Below are positions 5,137 through 21,120 of a stretch of 64,000 nt of DNA, one piece after another. The stretch covers positions 51,275 through 115,274 of the forward strand of contig JAYRXX010000025.1 of assembly GCA_041917295.1 (NCBI GenBank). Direction: 5' to 3'. The notes beneath the pieces are model-generated. The model did not search any database. It was not told the origin of the DNA and was given only the letters and a program-made list of their open reading frames with translations. Each line of letters starts with the position of its first letter. Positions within the stretch are counted from its first letter, which is position 1. This DNA comes from Elusimicrobiota bacterium. GTDB lineage: Bacteria; Elusimicrobiota; Elusimicrobia; FEN-1173. Both the position numbers and the translations under genes were made by a program.

Positions 5137-5253
5137 AAAGATCGTCTTGAGCGGTTCGTTTGGAGGGTGTGTGTGGGGGGGGGGGGGCCGAGTTTACAGG
5201 ATTGTTACAATTTTTTCTCTGTTTCTTTCGAACGGAATCTCTATAATCTAGGT

Positions 5254-8200
5254 ATGGAAGACAGTGCGCCTATCTTGAGGGGCTCGGCTCCCCTGGGGGG
5301 GCTCCTCGGAAGAGGGGTTCGGCTGTTGTTGGCTGCCCTCCTTTTTTCGGGAGACATGGGGGCGTGGGCCGCCCGAGACCTCTGGACAGAACGTCGAAAA
5401 GCGGCTTTTTCCGTTCGTGGCGGGTTGCGTTCCCCCGCCGCGGACCGGTTGGCGGCCTCGTTTCCGTCCGTCGATCCGGGGTTTGTCCCGGCGGAGGCGT
5501 CGGGCATGCCCGCCTGGTTGGCGAACACGGTGGGGCTTTATGCCGATGTGGGAACCTATGTTCCTCCCCCGCCGGGCCAACGGCGCGTGTTGATTCATGT
5601 TCAGGACCTTCACGCGGTGGAGGAGGCCCAACGCAACATCGCCTCTCTCCTGGACCAACTGGCGGGATCGGTCGGAGGAACCGACGGTCTGTACGTGGGG
5701 TTGGAAGGAGCGGCCGGACCATTTCGGACCGACGATTTTCGCGCGTTGGCGGCGCCGTCGGTGATCCGGCGGGTTTCGGACCGGTTTTTGCGGGCCGGAC
5801 TGATTTCGGGGCCCGAATTTTTTAGTTTGACCACCGAACGCCCGTTTCGTCTGTGGGGCACGGAAGATCCCGCCGCCTACGAAGCCAACGTCCGCGCGTT
5901 GACCCAAACCTTCGCCACCCAACCCCAAGACGACGCCCGCTTGGCCCACGCCCGCCGTCGGATGGACAAGTTAAAAAAGGCCCTCTACCCCCCCGCCCTG
6001 CTTGCCCTGGACGAGGCCCAAACCGCCTACGAATCCGGCCAACTCCCGTTGACGGGGTACGTCCAAAAGATTTCTGAAAATGTTTCGGACCGGGAGATGG
6101 GCCCTTCCCTGGTCCGGTATCGGGAAGCGTTGCGGTTGGAATCGGACCTCTCTCTCAAAAGCGTCGAGGCGGACCAACAACGGCTTCTGGAACATCTTGC
6201 GCCTCTCTTGACCGATCTTGAACGCCGCCGTTTAACCGAGGCCGGGTTGGCTTGCCGGTTGGGCCGGGCACGGCACGGTTCCTTTTTGACCGTCCTAAAA
6301 GAAATATGTCGACAACGCCGGGTCGACCTGGCCGGGTATCCCCACTTTTTGGCTCACAACGCCTATGTTGAAAAGGTGCAAGGATTGAGGGGGGAAGAGT
6401 TGATGGGGGATGTGGAACGTTTGGCTGATCGTCAAATGCAAGTTTTGGCGGGGGACGCCGCCGTTGTTAAAGCCATCGAGCTGGATCGTGACCTAAAACG
6501 GATCGAAAAACTGAACCGCTTTTCGATGGTCCCGGACGAATTTGGGAGGTGGACCCAACGTCGGTCAGAGGTGGCCCGATGGTCTCAACGGGGGGCCGAT
6601 TTGGCCCGGTATGCGGAAAGGTCTGTCCGGGTTCCCGGTTCTGAAGGTGTTCAACGGGCCAAGGGGAAGGAACCCAAGGGGGCCGACCCTTGGCCGGACC
6701 TCTTGGACGTGGCCGACCGGCACGCCGGTTTTCACCGGTGGGCCGAAACGCGCAATCGTTCGCTGGTTAAAAACCTGTTGGCCCGTTGGACCGACGACCG
6801 TCCGGCGGTGTTGGTGGCGGGCGGGTTCCAAGCAGAGGGTCTTCGCGCCGTCGCCCGGTCCGAAGGGGTGGGTTACATCTCCCTTGTCCCACGGGTGATC
6901 CACACCAAACAGTTTCCGCCGCCCCTGGAATCCTTTCGATCTAAAGGAAAAACAATCAAGTGGCGGTTGCCCGGCCCTTCCTCTCTCCAAAACCGCCTTC
7001 GAACCGCGGGTTCGGAGATTGGTTCACGAGAGGTTGTTTCAGTGGATAATGGGGAAGTTCCCTTTCCCACCGCGTTTATTGCCACGGTGTATGCCACGCT
7101 GGTCATGGATCCGGAATATCAAACTCCCTTGTCCCCGGGGGCCGTTGAGAAATTGCGGGAGGTGGCACTTACCCGGTTTGGGGTCGACTTGGAGCAAGTC
7201 GGTTCGGCCAACGAGAAAGGGGGCTTGGTGTTGACGGTCCGATTTCCGTCGGTACCCGAAGTCCCCGCCTACACCGTGACGATAAGTCGGGGTGGGCCCA
7301 ACGGGGAGGCCGGCGATTTCTGGGTGGGGATTGAATCGGTTTCTTCCTGGCGGCAAGCGGTCGAATTTATTCGCCAGGCGGACAATTTGATTGCATCCCT
7401 GGGCCCCGCGATTCGGTTGTGGGCCACTCGGGTTTTGCCCCACGCGATCGATCAAACGGGTTTGGCGTTTCGAAAAACGGCCGTATTTCTTATTCCGACG
7501 GTTCGTTCAGCCGGTGGATCGGGCCTCTTGAATTATTTCGGGGGACTGAAGGATCGGTGGACCCAATCGATCCTCTTGGCCCGGGAACGGGAAGACGTGC
7601 TCAAGGCGCTCGCCCAACCGCTTGACGATCGCAACGCCCGGTTGGCCGCGTTGGCCGCAAACCACACCAGGGTCATGCCCTCGGCATGGGTTCAATCTTT
7701 ATCCGAAGCGATCAATGGCCACAAGATCGGGACTCTAGAGATTGGGGTGGACAAAAAGAGCCTTCTGGTTTCCTTGGGTCAGGGTCAGTCCACCACCCGA
7801 TTGCGGTTGCATGTGACGTCGGCCAGGGCCCTCTACGAGCGACCCGCCGACTATTCTCCATACCAACTCGCCCGACGTTCAGACGGGACCATCGACGTGT
7901 ATTTGGCGGAACCGGTGGTCTCCAGCCCGGAACGGTTGTTGCCCTTGGTGATCGGTCGTTTGTTGCGTGAAATCAACGGCCAACCGTCGGGGAACCACCG
8001 CCTGGAAGAACTTCAGATTTTGTTGGGGATGTGGGAATCGTTGGCCCAGTACTCCATCAACAGCTGGGCCAGTTATGTTTTGGGAATGAAATTGGAACCG
8101 GCAATCGGGGTTCCTTCTGCGGTTCAACGCCAGGCCTGGCAACCCGGCGCTGTCCTTGATTTTGTTAACAATACGGAAGAGCAACTGGGTGGGGCCAACA

Positions 8201-9255
8201 CCGGCTTGTTTGTTTTGACCGGGGCTTCCCCAAATTCGGAAGCGGATTCTTTGGCTTCAACGGTAACCATGGACGCAGTGGTCAACGTACTTGCGGGTCT
8301 TGGTTGGGACACTGAGAGGGCCGGGGCCACGGCCAAGGGGTTGGTCGAAAATCGGCTGAATCAACGTATTCAGCTGATTGAACAGTTTCAAACCTTGGCG
8401 GATCAACGGGGTTTATTGACGCGCCTTTCCTGGCGGGTGAACCGTCAAGAATTGTCCGCCAGCGGAGCGAACCTGGTGATCGATTTGCTCAAGCACGTGG
8501 GTACGTCCCAAGGGCAAATCATGGCGCTGAACGGGACCCCTTACGAGACGGGACTCCAAACTCAAATGACGGACCAGTTTCCCTATCTGGCGCAAACCTT
8601 GCTGGGAATCATGAAAATGGCCGGGCAACCCCTGGACCGGGCGAGCGTGGAAAATCAGCGCGCTCGGTTGGCGGACATGTGGACTGTTTACGCGGAACAT
8701 TTTTCCATCGGATACGGCCAACTGTCTTCGGTTTACTCCCCTCCGGCGGCCTCCGCCACGGTGGCCCAAGCCGAGGGAGTCCTCGTCGGAGTGTTCCACC
8801 TGGCCCCCCTTGGCGATGAGAAAGCCCTCGACCGGGTTCTCGATGTGTTGTTGAGCCGTGACTTGAGCCGGTTTAAAGCAACGCTGTTGGTCCCGGAAAA
8901 TGGAGACGATTTGAAGGATTCTCTCGTCAAGGCGCTTGAAAATCGCTTGCGGGTACGGGAAATGACCGACTCTCAAACGGCGGGCGTCACAACATTTCTG
9001 GCCGGAGAAAATTTGTTGGTTCTCCCCGCGGGGGCTGAAAGGATTCAGTTGGATCTGGTGTTTCAGCAAATTACCCAACGCTGGGGAAACGTCACCCATG
9101 CGGACGTTTACACCGTCAACGCGGCTGTTTTTGATATGACCGTGGCGACCCTGCTCTCTTGGAATATCTACGAAAACGGCGTTCTGGTTTCCAATTCCGT
9201 CAAATCGGCTTTGGCGGAACAGCGGATCCGCGCTTTCATACAGCAACAAGCTTAA
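5254..9255 (+). CDS. Large (1334 aa) hypothetical secreted or membrane-anchored protein of unknown function
   Basis: Long uninterrupted ORF in a 62% GC genome with a hydrophobic N-terminal segment (VRLLLAALLFSG). The ATG at 5254 lies directly after a TATAAT hexamer, whereas the track ORF starts at 5167 inside a poly-G tract. No Walker, HExxH or other catalytic motif was recognised. Confidence 0.6.
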   Translation: MEDSAPILRGSAPLGGLLGRGVRLLLAALLFSGDMGAWAARDLWTERRKAAFSVRGGLRSPAADRLAASFPSVDPGFVPAEASGMPAWLANTVGLYADVGTYVPPPPGQRRVLIHVQDLHAVEEAQRNIASLLDQLAGSVGGTDGLYVGLEGAAGPFRTDDFRALAAPSVIRRVSDRFLRAGLISGPEFFSLTTERPFRLWGTEDPAAYEANVRALTQTFATQPQDDARLAHARRRMDKLKKALYPPALLALDEAQTAYESGQLPLTGYVQKISENVSDREMGPSLVRYREALRLESDLSLKSVEADQQRLLEHLAPLLTDLERRRLTEAGLACRLGRARHGSFLTVLKEICRQRRVDLAGYPHFLAHNAYVEKVQGLRGEELMGDVERLADRQMQVLAGDAAVVKAIELDRDLKRIEKLNRFSMVPDEFGRWTQRRSEVARWSQRGADLARYAERSVRVPGSEGVQRAKGKEPKGADPWPDLLDVADRHAGFHRWAETRNRSLVKNLLARWTDDRPAVLVAGGFQAEGLRAVARSEGVGYISLVPRVIHTKQFPPPLESFRSKGKTIKWRLPGPSSLQNRLRTAGSEIGSREVVSVDNGEVPFPTAFIATVYATLVMDPEYQTPLSPGAVEKLREVALTRFGVDLEQVGSANEKGGLVLTVRFPSVPEVPAYTVTISRGGPNGEAGDFWVGIESVSSWRQAVEFIRQADNLIASLGPAIRLWATRVLPHAIDQTGLAFRKTAVFLIPTVRSAGGSGLLNYFGGLKDRWTQSILLAREREDVLKALAQPLDDRNARLAALAANHTRVMPSAWVQSLSEAINGHKIGTLEIGVDKKSLLVSLGQGQSTTRLRLHVTSARALYERPADYSPYQLARRSDGTIDVYLAEPVVSSPERLLPLVIGRLLREINGQPSGNHRLEELQILLGMWESLAQYSINSWASYVLGMKLEPAIGVPSAVQRQAWQPGAVLDFVNNTEEQLGGANTGLFVLTGASPNSEADSLASTVTMDAVVNVLAGLGWDTERAGATAKGLVENRLNQRIQLIEQFQTLADQRGLLTRLSWRVNRQELSASGANLVIDLLKHVGTSQGQIMALNGTPYETGLQTQMTDQFPYLAQTLLGIMKMAGQPLDRASVENQRARLADMWTVYAEHFSIGYGQLSSVYSPPAASATVAQAEGVLVGVFHLAPLGDEKALDRVLDVLLSRDLSRFKATLLVPENGDDLKDSLVKALENRLRVREMTDSQTAGVTTFLAGENLLVLPAGAERIQLDLVFQQITQRWGNVTHADVYTVNAAVFDMTVATLLSWNIYENGVLVSNSVKSALAEQRIRAFIQQQA

Positions 9256-9420
9256 CCCGAAATTCCCAGTTGGATCGCGGGATTCGACGGAAAATTCGGG
9301 CCTTTTTTCTTCACAAAAAAGTTTGTCCGTAGTCCCTGCTACGGCCTGCACTTTTTTGTTCGTAAAAAGGCCCGCCTTTTCCTTCTCGGTCCTCGCGCCC
9401 AACTGGGAATTCCGGGTTAA
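9254..9420. repeat. MITE-like palindromic repeat, copy A (~167 bp)
   Basis: The element termini AACCCGAAATTCCCAGTTGG and CCAACTGGGAATTCCGGGTT form ~20-bp terminal inverted repeats. The whole element is about 95% identical to the reverse complement of 20953-21120. Confidence 0.8.
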
Positions 9421-9456
9421 AAAAACTACAATGCCGCAAAAACAGGGGGAACCAAC

Positions 9457-10536
9457 ATGACCACGCACGCCATCAGTTTGATCCCGGGAGACGGAACCGG
9501 ACCGGAAATTTCCGCGACGGTCCAAAAGGTTTTGGAGGCCACCGGCGTTAAAATTGCCTGGGATGTGGTGGAGGCGGGCGCCGACGTGGTGGAAAAATAC
9601 GGGACGCCTCTGCCCGACAACGTTTTGGCCTCGATTCGAAAAAACCGCGTCGCCTTGAAAGGTCCTCTGACCACGCCCATCGGCACCGGGTTTCGATCGG
9701 TCAACGTGGCCCTTCGTAAAGAGCTGGATTTGTATGCCTGTTTGCGGCCGTGCAAGTCGTATGCGGGTGTTCGGTCCCGGTATTCAAACATCGATTTGGT
9801 GGTGGTGCGGGAAAACACCGAAGATTTGTATGCGGGCGTGGAATACGCCCCCGACTCGAAAGAGGCCGACGAAATCATCGGCTGGTCAAAGGGGAAAATT
9901 GTGCCCCACGCGGCCATTTCCATTAAACCCATTTCCCGCGCCGGAACCGAGCGGATCATGACCTACGCCTTTGATTACGCGGTCCAGCACAAACGGCGCA
10001 AGGTTACCGCGGTGACCAAAGCCAATATCATGAAATTTACCGACGGCCTGTTTTTTGACACAGCCCGCGAGGTGGCCAAACGCTACGCCGGAAAAGTGGA
10101 ATACGAAGAACGGTTGATCGACAATATGTGCATGCAGTTGGTGCAAAAGCCCGAGCTTTACGACGTGATCGCGTTGCCGAACCTGTACGGCGACATTTTG
10201 TCGGACTTGTGCGCCGGGCTGATCGGGGGGTTGGGCATTGCGCCGGGGGCCAACATCGGCCAGGGGATTTCGCTGTTCGAGCCCGTCCACGGGTCGGCCC
10301 CGAAATACAAAGGGATGAACAAGGTGAACCCCACGGCGATGCTGTTGTCGTCGGTTTTGATGCTGGAACACATCGGCGAAAGAGCCGCCGCGGTGAAATT
10401 GGAATCCGCCATCGCCGCCGTGATGGCCGAAGGCAAAAACGTGACTTACGATTTGAAACCCCGCCCCGACGATCCCACCGCCGTGGGAACCCGCGAGATG
10501 GGCGAGGCGATTGTTCAAAAAATGAGGAGTCTGTGA
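9457..10536 (+). CDS. Isocitrate/isopropylmalate dehydrogenase family protein, probably NAD-dependent isocitrate dehydrogenase
   Basis: 359 aa; N-terminal [11 protein letters not shown]; [27 protein letters not shown] metal- and substrate-binding signature of beta-decarboxylating dehydrogenases. Confidence 0.8.
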
Positions 10537-11027
10537 TGACCGACGAACTGTCGTGCGTGATCGTGAAACCCGACGGGGTCGGGAAAGCCGTGGTGGGGAA
10601 AATTTTCGCGCGCCTGGAAGCCGAGGGGTTTCGGTTGACCGCGGCGCGGATGGTGCGTCCCACCCCGGACCTGTTGGGCGGTTTTTACGCGGAACACAAA
10701 GGCAAACCGTTTTACGAAGGGTTGTTGAAATTTATTTCGTCGGGGCCCATCGTGGTGACGGCGTGGCGGGGGGCGGAGGTGGTTCGAAAAATCCGGGCGT
10801 TGATCGGGTCCACCAACCCGGCCGAGGCCGCCGCCGGAACGTTCCGTGCCCAATGGGGCACCGACAACCGGCGCAACCTGATCCACGCTTCGGATTCTCC
10901 CGCGTCGGGATTGCGGGAGACCGCTTTCTTCTTTACGCCGGAGGAACTGGCGCCGTACGATCCGATGCTCTGGTCCCGCCCCGAATACGCCCCGCCCGCA
11001 CCGGTTCTTACTCAGAAGATCACGTAA
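10536..11027 (+). CDS. ndk: Nucleoside diphosphate kinase
   Basis: [16 protein letters not shown]-terminus and NLIHASDS active-site His motif. The ATG overlaps the stop of the upstream dehydrogenase gene (ATGA). The longer track ORF from 10128 is a frame artefact. There is a ~30-aa C-terminal extension. Confidence 0.88.
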   Translation: MTDELSCVIVKPDGVGKAVVGKIFARLEAEGFRLTAARMVRPTPDLLGGFYAEHKGKPFYEGLLKFISSGPIVVTAWRGAEVVRKIRALIGSTNPAEAAAGTFRAQWGTDNRRNLIHASDSPASGLRETAFFFTPEELAPYDPMLWSRPEYAPPAPVLTQKIT

Positions 11028-11120
11028 ACCCCGGCGGTAGCGCGGTCAGCTTTCGCCGGGATGACGGAATTGTTGAAAAAGACACCGTGGAACCCTGGGA
11101 CTTATTGGAGCTTCGTGGGT

Positions 11121-11411
11121 CTACGCGCTTTCTTGCATGTAGTCAACAACAATGCCGATGATCTTTCGAACCGCTTCGTTGCAGGATTTGAATTCGATTC
11201 GGTCCAAAACGGCGGATCCGTGTTTTCGAAGAAGGTCACTGATGAGGGCGTGAATAAAGGATTGGGTGGCCGCCTCCACGCCCGCGAAGTCCAACACGAC
11301 GGTGTCCCCGGATTCCAGGGCGGGAAGAATTTCACCCAGACGCAGGGCTCTGGCCGCGTCCTTGTTTTCGGCGAAACTTCCCGCGTGGGCGAGCAGGCGG
11401 ATCTGTTTCAT
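11121..11411 (-). CDS. STAS-like small protein (anti-sigma-antagonist-like or DUF4325-like fold)
   Basis: 96 aa with a VVLDFAGVEAATQSFIHALI core typical of STAS or anti-anti-sigma-like domains. Its start overlaps the stop of the upstream HATPase gene (ATGA at 11408-11411). Confidence 0.55.
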   Translation of the reverse strand: MKQIRLLAHAGSFAENKDAARALRLGEILPALESGDTVVLDFAGVEAATQSFIHALISDLLRKHGSAVLDRIEFKSCNEAVRKIIGIVVDYMQESA

Positions 11412-12370
11412 GTGAACCGGGGTTGTTTAAACCGTTCCCGTCTTCGTTCGCGTATGGCGGATGAGTATGTGTCTCGTATCGCGTCCAGAAGTTTGGAGAA
11501 CGCCTCGGTTTGACCAAGCGATATATCGACCCCGACGACGGTCCCCGGCCAATAGGGCATGTCGGATTCGGTGGAATGCCGGTCTTTGAACGGATCGGCG
11601 CGAAGCGAGGGGTTGCGGCCGGTCCTTTTTTTTAAAAGTTTGTAAAACCCATTTCCGCTGTAGATCACGAAAAAATCCCGATTCACGCTCGCGATGGATT
11701 TGACGAAAAACAATCCCGCGCCGGCATTTTGATCGGTGCCTCCTTCCCGCGCGGTGGCGCCCGTAATTCCCGGGGTTAAGGCCAAGCGAATGGCCTCCAA
11801 ATCCGATGGGGCCCTGTGGGAGCGGTTGATGGTGGTTTTGATGCCAACGCCCGTGTCGGCAATCCCGATGCGAAGGGTGTGGCTTTTCTTGTAGTACTGG
11901 GCGCAGAGAAACGCGCCGTGGGGAGATTCGGCATGCTCGATCACGTTTCGCACAAGTTCGCTGACAATGTATCCCAGGGTTTTCGAGGGATCGGGGTCGA
12001 GGTGCAGCAACGGGATCATCTCTGTAATGAAAGCGCTCAGCTCATTGGAAGTCCGAATTTGCGTCAGGGGGATGAACCGCCCCGCTGGTTCATGTTCCTG
12101 CAAGACGATGTCCGAGTCGATCCCAAGAGTTCGCATGAGGCCCATGCGCACAAAATAGCCTGATGACGCCGCCTCAAATTTCCCACAAAAGATATTTTCG
12201 GGTTTAACGCGTTGTCCAAGGGCGGCCAACATGGATAGAACCATCGGATGAACGGACATCCATCGGTCGTTTGCCGTGATTTCCAGGATGTCTGGTTGTG
12301 AAGGATCAAAACCGCGTAAAAAGGGATCAATGTTCCCAAGGAATGCGCTGTTTGGGATGTGTATTTTCAT
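11408..12370 (-). CDS. Histidine-kinase-like ATPase (HATPase_c, GHKL) protein with an unrecognised ~145-aa N-terminal domain
   Basis: N-box ELVRNVIEHAE, G1 box IGIADTGVGI and G2-like GATAREGG...GAGLFF in the central region, like RsbW/SpoIIAB-type Ser kinases but with extra N- and C-terminal regions. GC content is visibly lower than in the neighbouring genes. Confidence 0.65.
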   Translation of the reverse strand: MKIHIPNSAFLGNIDPFLRGFDPSQPDILEITANDRWMSVHPMVLSMLAALGQRVKPENIFCGKFEAASSGYFVRMGLMRTLGIDSDIVLQEHEPAGRFIPLTQIRTSNELSAFITEMIPLLHLDPDPSKTLGYIVSELVRNVIEHAESPHGAFLCAQYYKKSHTLRIGIADTGVGIKTTINRSHRAPSDLEAIRLALTPGITGATAREGGTDQNAGAGLFFVKSIASVNRDFFVIYSGNGFYKLLKKRTGRNPSLRADPFKDRHSTESDMPYWPGTVVGVDISLGQTEAFSKLLDAIRDTYSSAIRERRRERFKQPRFT

Positions 12371-20952: not shown

Positions 20953-21120
20953 TAACCCGGATTCCCCAGTTGGGCGCGAGGACCGAGACGGAAAAGGCGG
21001 GCCTTTTTACGAACAAAAAAGTGCAGGCCGTAGCGGGGACTACGGGCAAACTTTTTTGTGAAGAAAAAAGACCCGAATTTTCCGTCGAATCCCGCGATCC
21101 AACTGGGGAATTCGGGTTAA
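20953..21120. repeat. MITE-like palindromic repeat, copy B (inverted relative to copy A)
   Basis: Reverse complement matches 9254-9420 over about 165 bp with a handful of mismatches; same ~20-bp terminal inverted repeats. Confidence 0.8.

Follow-up and report, generated by a model that had tools for sequence, protein, structure and literature searches.

The Tiki/TraB/PrgY/GumN/ChaN/erythromycin-esterase (TIKI) superfamily is characterized by a parallel beta-sheet core with helices on either side, a set of two His and two Glu residues (2His/2Glu) and a conserved basic residue, and it also contains non-enzymatic members (PMC6254334). In RRSP, an endopeptidase effector of MARTX toxins, this set comprises E3900-x-H3902, E3930, R4001 and H4030, and mutation of any of these residues abolishes activity (PMC6254334). 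Two studies on giant proteins from Omnitrophota, that of West-Roberts et al. (2023 bioRxiv; 10.1101/2023.11.21.568195) and a 2026 preprint (10.64898/2026.06.07.730766), describe N-terminal regions without identifiable domains, and neither of them mentions Tiki. Here we analyse a gene at positions 5254..9255 (+ strand) of a 64,000-nucleotide stretch of contig JAYRXX010000025.1, from an Elusimicrobiota bacterium; this whole stretch is referred to below as the window. A first-pass annotation of the window had described the gene product as an orphan secreted protein with no recognisable domains. Our results show that its residues ~1-562 are a module found at the head of thousands of proteins, large to giant, in Elusimicrobiota and Omnitrophota, and suggest a distant relationship of this module to the TIKI superfamily.

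An N-terminal module heading large and giant proteins

The first homology search with the deduced protein retrieved around 14 full-length relatives of 32-84% identity, the named ones being from Elusimicrobia metagenome-assembled genomes (MAGs). It also retrieved distant matches to proteins of ~2,300 amino acids (aa) with PutA, HAD/IMPase or GlnD-type domains, which aligned only across query residues ~96-550. A profile of this region (A2), run exhaustively against 1.84 billion representatives, matched 9,629 proteins, 8,430 of them at E<=1e-10 and 6,511 at E<=1e-30; a profile search of a word-indexed database contributed just three extra proteins. In the best 150 of the 9,629, the match covered nearly the whole profile and started within the first ~150 residues of proteins of 579-7,623 aa; across the family the module is nearly always N-terminal. 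The frame from the window matched a module profile of ~557 positions with 762 bits (E 8.5e-233, profile positions 5-555), and it is the single copy of the module in the 64 kb. The orphan label is thus untenable, because the protein has ~17 full-length orthologs with conserved synteny and its N-terminal ~560 aa belong to a family of 9,629 cluster representatives. The absence of recognisable domains stood in part: the protein retrieved zero matches in Pfam, NCBIfam and PDB sequences, yet those N-terminal ~560 aa constitute a very large, unannotated module family.

In GTDB genomes we found at least 319 module loci, mostly in Elusimicrobiota, including Ca. Obscuribacterium, where several MAGs have 7-9 or more loci per genome. 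Other loci were in Omnitrophota and in a few MAGs with the label Planctomycetia. Most of the corresponding open reading frames (ORFs) extend past ~2,500 aa. Domains found 3' of the module in relatives include GH77, glycogen phosphorylase, alpha-amylase, protein kinase, FBPase, ARMT1 phosphatase, SpoIIE, NUDIX, HATPase and AAA; many relatives also show several transmembrane (TM)-like segments. In all, family members have a variable interior enclosed between a head and a short tail that are both constant. The published Omnitrophota giants are similar in that they come from the same phyla, are led by a signal or a TM segment, and contain HATPase, NUDIX, HAD, AAA, kinase and sugar-metabolism domains in their interiors. 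They include proteins of more than 10 thousand residues, compared with 0.6-7.6 thousand for the module relatives found here and 1.3 thousand for the window protein, which, unlike them, lacks a recognisable enzyme payload. At the lower end of this range, P0022 (L007, JGI 3300020990 contig Ga0206945_1043, gene 8001-9926) has 641 aa and apparently consists of the module alone; an ORF of 129 aa comes after it, and DsbD, redoxin and phosphodiesterase genes adjoin it. The module therefore occurs without a large payload too.

Conservation was computed over 164 module sequences. Residues conserved at 94-100% are W44, R47, Q117-D118-x-H120, Q126, N128, E151-G-A, G202, Y209, N212, E296, R335, F493, A497, R500, G523-G524-(F/Y)-H526 and P546. 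Of these, D118 reaches 98% and H120 99%, and Q126, E151, G202, R500, G523, G524 and P546 are each found in 100% of the sequences. The window protein keeps the whole invariant set apart from H526, where it has Gln. An AlphaFold2 (AF2) model of the N-terminal part, based on an 11-sequence alignment, had a mean predicted local distance difference test score (pLDDT) of 79 (85-95 in the folded part) and a predicted template modelling score (pTM) of 0.71. The model contains a six-stranded alpha/beta core (strands 97-103, 112-118, 146-150, 198-203, 518-523 and 540-546) with flanking helices, split by an all-helical insert of ~280 aa (~206-483). A strand immediately precedes each of H120, E151 and position 526, and R500 is part of the helix before the fifth strand. 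On the + strand of the window, the first part of the core (aa 96-205) spans 5539..5868 and includes QD118-L-H120, Q126, N128 and E151-G-A (pLDDT 85-93). The helical insert (aa 206-483), with the invariant Y209, N212, E296 and R335, spans 5869..6702 (pLDDT mostly 86-95). The second part of the core (aa 484-562), at 6703..6939, comprises the helix with F493/A497/R500-N501, strand 518-523, G523-G-F-Q526, strand 540-546 and P546. The first-pass annotation had singled out residues 400-700 (LVAGGFQAEGL) for a possible Rossmann-like or glycosyl-hydrolase fold; we discarded both signatures, as the segment is the invariant GGFH motif of the family, mutated to GGFQ in the window. Separately, within the helical insert 13 of 43 relatives showed weak matches to PF23202 (ZNF598 PAH domain; best E 3e-5), in a zone corresponding to window aa ~290-340 (nt ~6120-6275), which may reflect a PAH-like three-helix element or noise from helical composition.

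The module is preceded by a leader (aa 1-40; 5254..5373, + strand), with the sequence MEDSAPILRGSAPLGGLLGRGVRLLLAALLFSGDMGAWAARDLW, which is the sole Kyte-Doolittle hydrophobic peak of the protein. It has a basic n-region (R9, R20 and R23), an h-region (L24-F31, LLLAALLF) and a polar c-region ending in AWA-A (A38-W-A40). This signal-like layout upholds the earlier proposal of an N-terminal hydrophobic anchor or signal, and leaders of the subfamily resemble a classical Sec signal, with an h-region of ~10 aa and an AxA end. A counterpart hydrophobic segment was found in 152 of 165 relatives. Across the wider family, an uncharged segment of TM length (median 21 aa) has K/R on either side (3.0 upstream and 3.5 downstream), with net charges of +3.7 versus +1.0. 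A plausible reading of these features is that the leader is a signal peptide or a membrane anchor, leading to export or anchoring. Right after it lies the motif W44-x-x-R47-K (5383..5397, + strand), with family consensus W.[ED]RR, which we found in 156 of 165 relatives at a median position of 36; W44 and R47 are conserved at 94% and 95%, respectively.

Resemblance of the module to the TIKI superfamily

We scanned relatives individually against Pfam (24,736 models) with a permissive threshold, using 43 full-length sequences and 26 cores from which the helical insert had been deleted. PF04187 (Cofac_haem_bdg, ChaN, Tiki superfamily) was matched by 14 of the full-length relatives (best E 1.6e-5) and by 12 of the cores (best E 4.4e-5), and PF01963 (TraB/PrgY/GumN) by one full-length relative and two cores; with the cores, no family other than these two was matched more than once. 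A weak match to TIGR00261 was also seen among the module searches. The PF04187 matches correspond to the segment F..A..R(N/D)...VLV.GGFH..G, at profile positions ~159-205 of 213. Searches with the protein and with subfamily, module and core-only profiles against Pfam, NCBIfam and PDB sequences retrieved nothing significant.

Profile and structure comparisons pointed weakly in the same direction. The TraB/GumN protein YbaP of E. coli contains GSIH41, VE67AD, ELE159GA, R228-N229 and GALH252. Comparison by hhalign of the core-only module with a YbaP profile paired, in colinear order, LEGA with LEGA and RN..GGFH with RN..GALH (P 0.014, probability 3%). When the halves were aligned separately, the LEGA pairing had a P of 9e-4 and that of RN..GGFH with RN..GALH a P of 0.047. 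The YbaP template profile was shallow (effective number of sequences ~2), as the homolog search and metagenome scan returned only orthologs of >=59-69% identity. In Foldseek comparisons of the N-terminal AF2 model with PDB, only two enzyme-like folds were listed, those of ChaN 2g5g (prob 0.41) and EreC 6xcs. At E<=0.001 there were zero matches for both AF2 models against PDB and for the N-terminal model against BFVD; for the N-terminal model, this is because the helical insert and long helical proteins dominate the list.

At the family level, the order and spacing of the conserved residues appear to match the 2His/2Glu+Arg set of RRSP. The acidic-x-His motif would be E3900-x-H3902 in RRSP and D118-x-H120 in the module, the Glu after the first His would be E3930 (+28) and E151 (+31), the basic residue R4001 and R500, and the second His following it H4030 (+29) and H526 (+26). 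Together, these mutually consistent signals make it likely that the module belongs to the TIKI superfamily, as a highly divergent member.

ChaN (PF04187, 2G5G), from the sole Pfam family matched recurrently, has the same helix-strand-GxxH arrangement with R(N/D) ~25 residues upstream, and is extracytoplasmic with a signal or lipoprotein leader, as the module may be. ChaN is a stand-alone protein of ~250 aa that binds haem and has no known catalysis, in contrast to the module, whose ~520 aa include a helical insert of 280 aa and which heads multi-kiloresidue proteins. With the TraB/PrgY/GumN proteins (PF01963: YbaP, Enterococcus PrgY, human TRABD and Tiki1/2), which are membrane-associated, often extracytoplasmic hydrolase-like domains, the module shares colinear LEGA, RN and GxxH motifs. 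However, their first His motif is GxxH, in contrast to QDxH in the module, which also differs by its large helical insert, its fusion to huge variable payloads and the conserved ...QA tail at the C-terminus. The likeness to Ere (EreA/B/C, Bcr135/136) and RRSP consists of the acidic-x-His after strand 1, a Glu ~28-31 residues further on and a basic residue ~26-29 residues before the second His (PMC6254334), although a sequence-level match to the module is absent, and RRSP is only one of the effectors carried by a toxin, while the module is a constant N-terminal head. A literature link to 'DUF399' was a prefix artefact, the paper being on DUF3996, and was rejected as irrelevant.

The window copy departs from the family at the putative second catalytic His of the Tiki-type set, with a Gln526 codon (CAA) at 6829..6831 (+ strand). 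His occupies this position in 163 of the 164 family members, the Gln being unique to the window protein, and the closest orthologs (84, 77 and 58% identical) carry His. The protein is identical in the NCBI record and in a Logan assembly. Position 526 would correspond to H4030 of RRSP, whose Leu mutant is inactive (PMC6254334). By analogy, if the module is a hydrolase, the window copy is probably catalytically impaired or altered. The ratio of non-synonymous to synonymous substitution rates (dN/dS) of the module is 0.16; the window copy therefore likely retains function, probably a binding or scaffolding role.

A conserved core gene between coaE and icd

The gene starts with an ATG at 5254 and ends with a TAA at 9253-9255, comprising 1,333 codons plus the stop. 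A longer, GTG-started version of the same frame opens at 5167, and database entry P0001 (1,360 aa) also starts upstream; we preferred the ATG because the ortholog alignments begin there. ORFs in other frames across the gene reach a maximum of 370 aa, which is ordinary for ~60% GC, and the GC content of the gene resembles that of its surroundings. No repeats were found in the 1,333-aa protein. Upstream lie redoxin, polA, fpg and coaE genes and downstream an icd-type dehydrogenase and, later, rho. The first-pass annotation was therefore right in calling this a long, real gene without serious competing frames, flanked by housekeeping genes.

The orthologs are 32-84% identical over their full length. 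In three relatives on long contigs (76%, 34% and 33% identity) the gene likewise sits between coaE and icd, answering a question raised in the first pass, and the shared order is trx, redoxin, polA, fpg, coaE, the gene, icd, ndk, nifU, rho, M23 peptidase, rpmE, prfA and prmC. With the 76%-identical ortholog, dN/dS was 0.25 overall, and lower in residues 96-560 (0.16) than in residues 575-1333 (0.32). This is thus a genuine, vertically inherited and conserved core gene of an Elusimicrobiota lineage, under purifying selection. The sole split ortholog, L009 (JADJZR010000009.1, 83% identical), consists of two ORFs, and NCBI annotates a 371-aa fragment (P0021). It contains a 1-nt deletion in a G5 run (L009:7140-7190) on a long-read 'tig' contig, and restoring one G yields MGDVERLADRQ, as in the window protein. 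The split is probably a long-read assembly error rather than evidence of a pseudogene.

Downstream of the module, the subfamily-specific C-terminal region (aa 575-1333; 6976..9252, + strand) comprises ~760 aa and was modelled by AF2 with a mean pLDDT of 65. Better-predicted blocks (pLDDT 75-88) are an alpha+beta block (aa ~774-909), a bundle of helices (~1004-1159) and a terminal, Rossmann-like beta-alpha-beta domain (~1174-1333). A hidden Markov model (HMM) of residues 575-1333 detected only the subfamily, two further close relatives (P0023 and P0024) and parts of P0047, P0032 and P0027 (~1,400 aa). Foldseek comparisons of the C-terminal model yielded generic Rossmann and helical matches (best E 0.04), and a Pfam scan of 14 members and a PDB profile search with this region found nothing.

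The extreme C-terminus, ...RIRAFIQQQA-COOH (9223..9252, + strand), fits a family-wide terminal motif, Phi-x-x-[QSAN]-A. The terminal residue is Ala in 114 of 164 module proteins, and in 96 of the 146 outside the subfamily, against a background of 11% Ala; the exceptions are mostly short ORFs that are probably truncated. In tails ending in Ala, position -2 is occupied by Q/S/A/N and positions -5 (93%), -6, -11, -15 and -22 by hydrophobic residues, and the motif lies on an amphipathic helix regardless of the interior domains. HMMs of the last 60 or 200 aa from relatives with unrelated interiors matched neither the C-terminus of the window protein nor each other, and therefore only a short terminal motif is common to them, not a domain. 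The motif could serve in sorting, as a tag for degradation or as a ligand that the N-terminal module binds.

As the first-pass annotation noted, the ORF ends at an element resembling a miniature inverted-repeat transposable element (MITE). This palindromic element, outside the gene (9252..9420, ~169 bp), has 22-nt terminal inverted repeats (TTAACCCGAAATTCCCAGTTGG), of which the left one overlaps the TAA stop codon, with TTAA at its borders and an inner imperfect inverted repeat of 24 nt. A second copy lies at 20954-21118 in the opposite orientation. The spacer between the gene and icd, with the element, is 201 bp, in comparison with only 37-47 bp in orthologs, and the element was not found in the 86 related loci searched. 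It is a later insertion into the intergenic spacer.

Other features distinguish the surroundings of the gene in the window. The spacer between coaE and the gene is 117 bp, versus only 7-62 bp in orthologs, and contains a run of 13 G (5175-5187), ~66 nt 5' of the ATG, which may be prone to slippage (phase-variable) or else sensitive to assembly. The hexamer TATAAT occurs at 5242-5247, 6 nt 5' of the ATG; in a scan of the upstream region for promoters and terminators, neither a full sigma-70-like site nor a terminator was found. Past icd, where syntenic relatives run icd-ndk-nifU directly, the window has additional ORFs: one at 10553-11161 (+ strand, 202 aa), without a Pfam match, and one on the minus strand at 11408-12370 (320 aa), with weak HATPase_c-like matches. 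The extra ORFs in 10553-12370 may be a local insertion.

Alternative explanations and implications

The explanation that we consider best, with fair though far from full confidence, is that of a leader-tethered, divergent TIKI-like module followed by a subfamily-specific payload. The predicted model would provide an alpha/beta core in which D118-x-H120, E151 and GGFH526 mark the ends of strands, with the R500-N501 helix before the last strand, and a helical insertion of ~280 aa would split this TIKI-like core. The leader would place the module at or beyond the inner membrane. There is an even chance that, in members with the full set, the module is a His/Glu water-activating hydrolase, either a peptidase or an esterase; with H526Q, the window copy would probably be impaired or altered and have a binding or scaffolding role. 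Several points weigh against this explanation. Each of the TIKI signals is, alone, below significance: the PF04187 matches reach 12-24 bits, under the 27.7-bit cutoff, involve only the last ~45 profile positions and are absent from the window protein and its 13 close orthologs. The hhalign probabilities are 3-23%, with the N-terminal His motifs unpaired, the Foldseek E-values for ChaN 2g5g and EreC 6xcs are ~1.5, and the PDB-sequence profile searches retrieved neither ChaN nor Ere. Within the superfamily, ChaN itself binds haem and is non-catalytic. Charges flank the leader on both sides, and the C-terminal 57% of the protein matches no known family.

Two of the alternatives concern the nature of the module. 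It is possible, though rather unlikely in our judgement, that it is a non-catalytic binding or scaffold domain for ligands or proteins, of the kind represented by ChaN, which binds haem, or by the inactive PMT C1/C2 domain, in which the invariant His, Glu and Arg would hold a ligand, a metal or a peptide rather than hydrolyse it. The nearest Pfam family is that of ChaN, non-enzymatic members occur in the superfamily (PMC6254334), and H526Q is tolerated in a module with a dN/dS of 0.16. However, the full D-x-H/E/R/GxxH set, present in 163 of 164 sequences at 98-100%, is more typical of a catalytic centre, and its residues map one-to-one onto the catalytic essentials of RRSP (PMC6254334). Less favoured is a module unrelated to TIKI, that is, a new alpha/beta plus helical fold with a likeness in motifs due to chance or convergence. 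Such an origin would agree with links to TIKI that are all sub-threshold and mostly confined to a 45-residue segment, with the lack of significant matches in Foldseek and PDB profile searches, and with the low hhalign probability and unpaired N-terminal motifs. What speaks for kinship, on the contrary, is that only Tiki-superfamily families recur among 24,736 Pfam models (12/26 and 14/43, versus <=1 for others), that the independent, weak signals from Foldseek and hhalign converge on TIKI, and that residue order and spacing fit.

The remaining alternatives concern the gene as a whole. The first-pass annotation had raised the possibility of a secreted toxin, an adhesin or a novel enzyme, which could have been acquired as accessory cargo; the signal-like N-terminus, the absence of a curated domain and the MITE-like element at the 3' end would be in line with this, and yet we consider it very improbable. 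Synteny with housekeeping genes extends down to 33% identity, selection is purifying, the protein has no repeats, its GC is like that of the surroundings, the module is common to thousands of proteins and the MITE was inserted later; a vertically inherited core gene without a mobile context does not fit a toxin or adhesin, and strict synteny amid housekeeping genes, together with purifying selection, led us to reject an accessory island. Even less credible, to the point of being almost negligible, is a pseudogene or mis-called ORF, or an AsmA/TamB-like protein of envelope biogenesis, for which one could invoke the two ORFs of L009 and the large size of a protein with an anchor-like N-terminal segment. 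The L009 split, the only one seen, stems from the 1-nt deletion in its G5 run, the other orthologs are intact and dN/dS is 0.25, which rules out a pseudogene or mis-call. Likewise, neither the protein nor 13 orthologs matched AsmA, TamB or a DUF family in Pfam or NCBIfam even at E<=1, and we rejected an AsmA/TamB-like protein since, besides the lack of a profile match, the AF2 models are helical plus alpha/beta and not a beta-taco groove. Of the two outcomes that the first-pass annotation had named as contrary to its proposal, a match to a known envelope family was not found, and the one frameshifted relative, L009, probably reflects an assembly error.

What would be new under the explanation of a leader-tethered TIKI-like module is a divergent, insert-bearing module of this type serving as the head of large proteins. 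We also entertain, as a doubtful extension, that the module, the W..RR motif and the ...QA tail act jointly as a processing or sorting device built into thousands of large and giant Elusimicrobiota and Omnitrophota proteins, in which a cis-acting peptidase or esterase at the membrane face would cleave, anchor or link head-to-tail its own polypeptide. If true, this would be a previously unrecognised system of protein maturation, and the window gene would be a minimal, core-genome member with the catalytic His replaced.

For annotation, our results make a case for a new family model, and against 'orphan' labels on such genes: at least 9,600 protein clusters contain one unit of ~520 aa with invariant hydrolase-like residues and without a Pfam model. 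The window gene, as a compact, single-copy and syntenic member, is a possible tractable model, and H526Q offers a natural, ready-made variant of the candidate active site. The main import of these results lies in the giant-protein family rather than in a single gene; if the published giants carry the module, they would share a testable handle, consisting of a candidate active site, a leader motif and a C-terminal tail.

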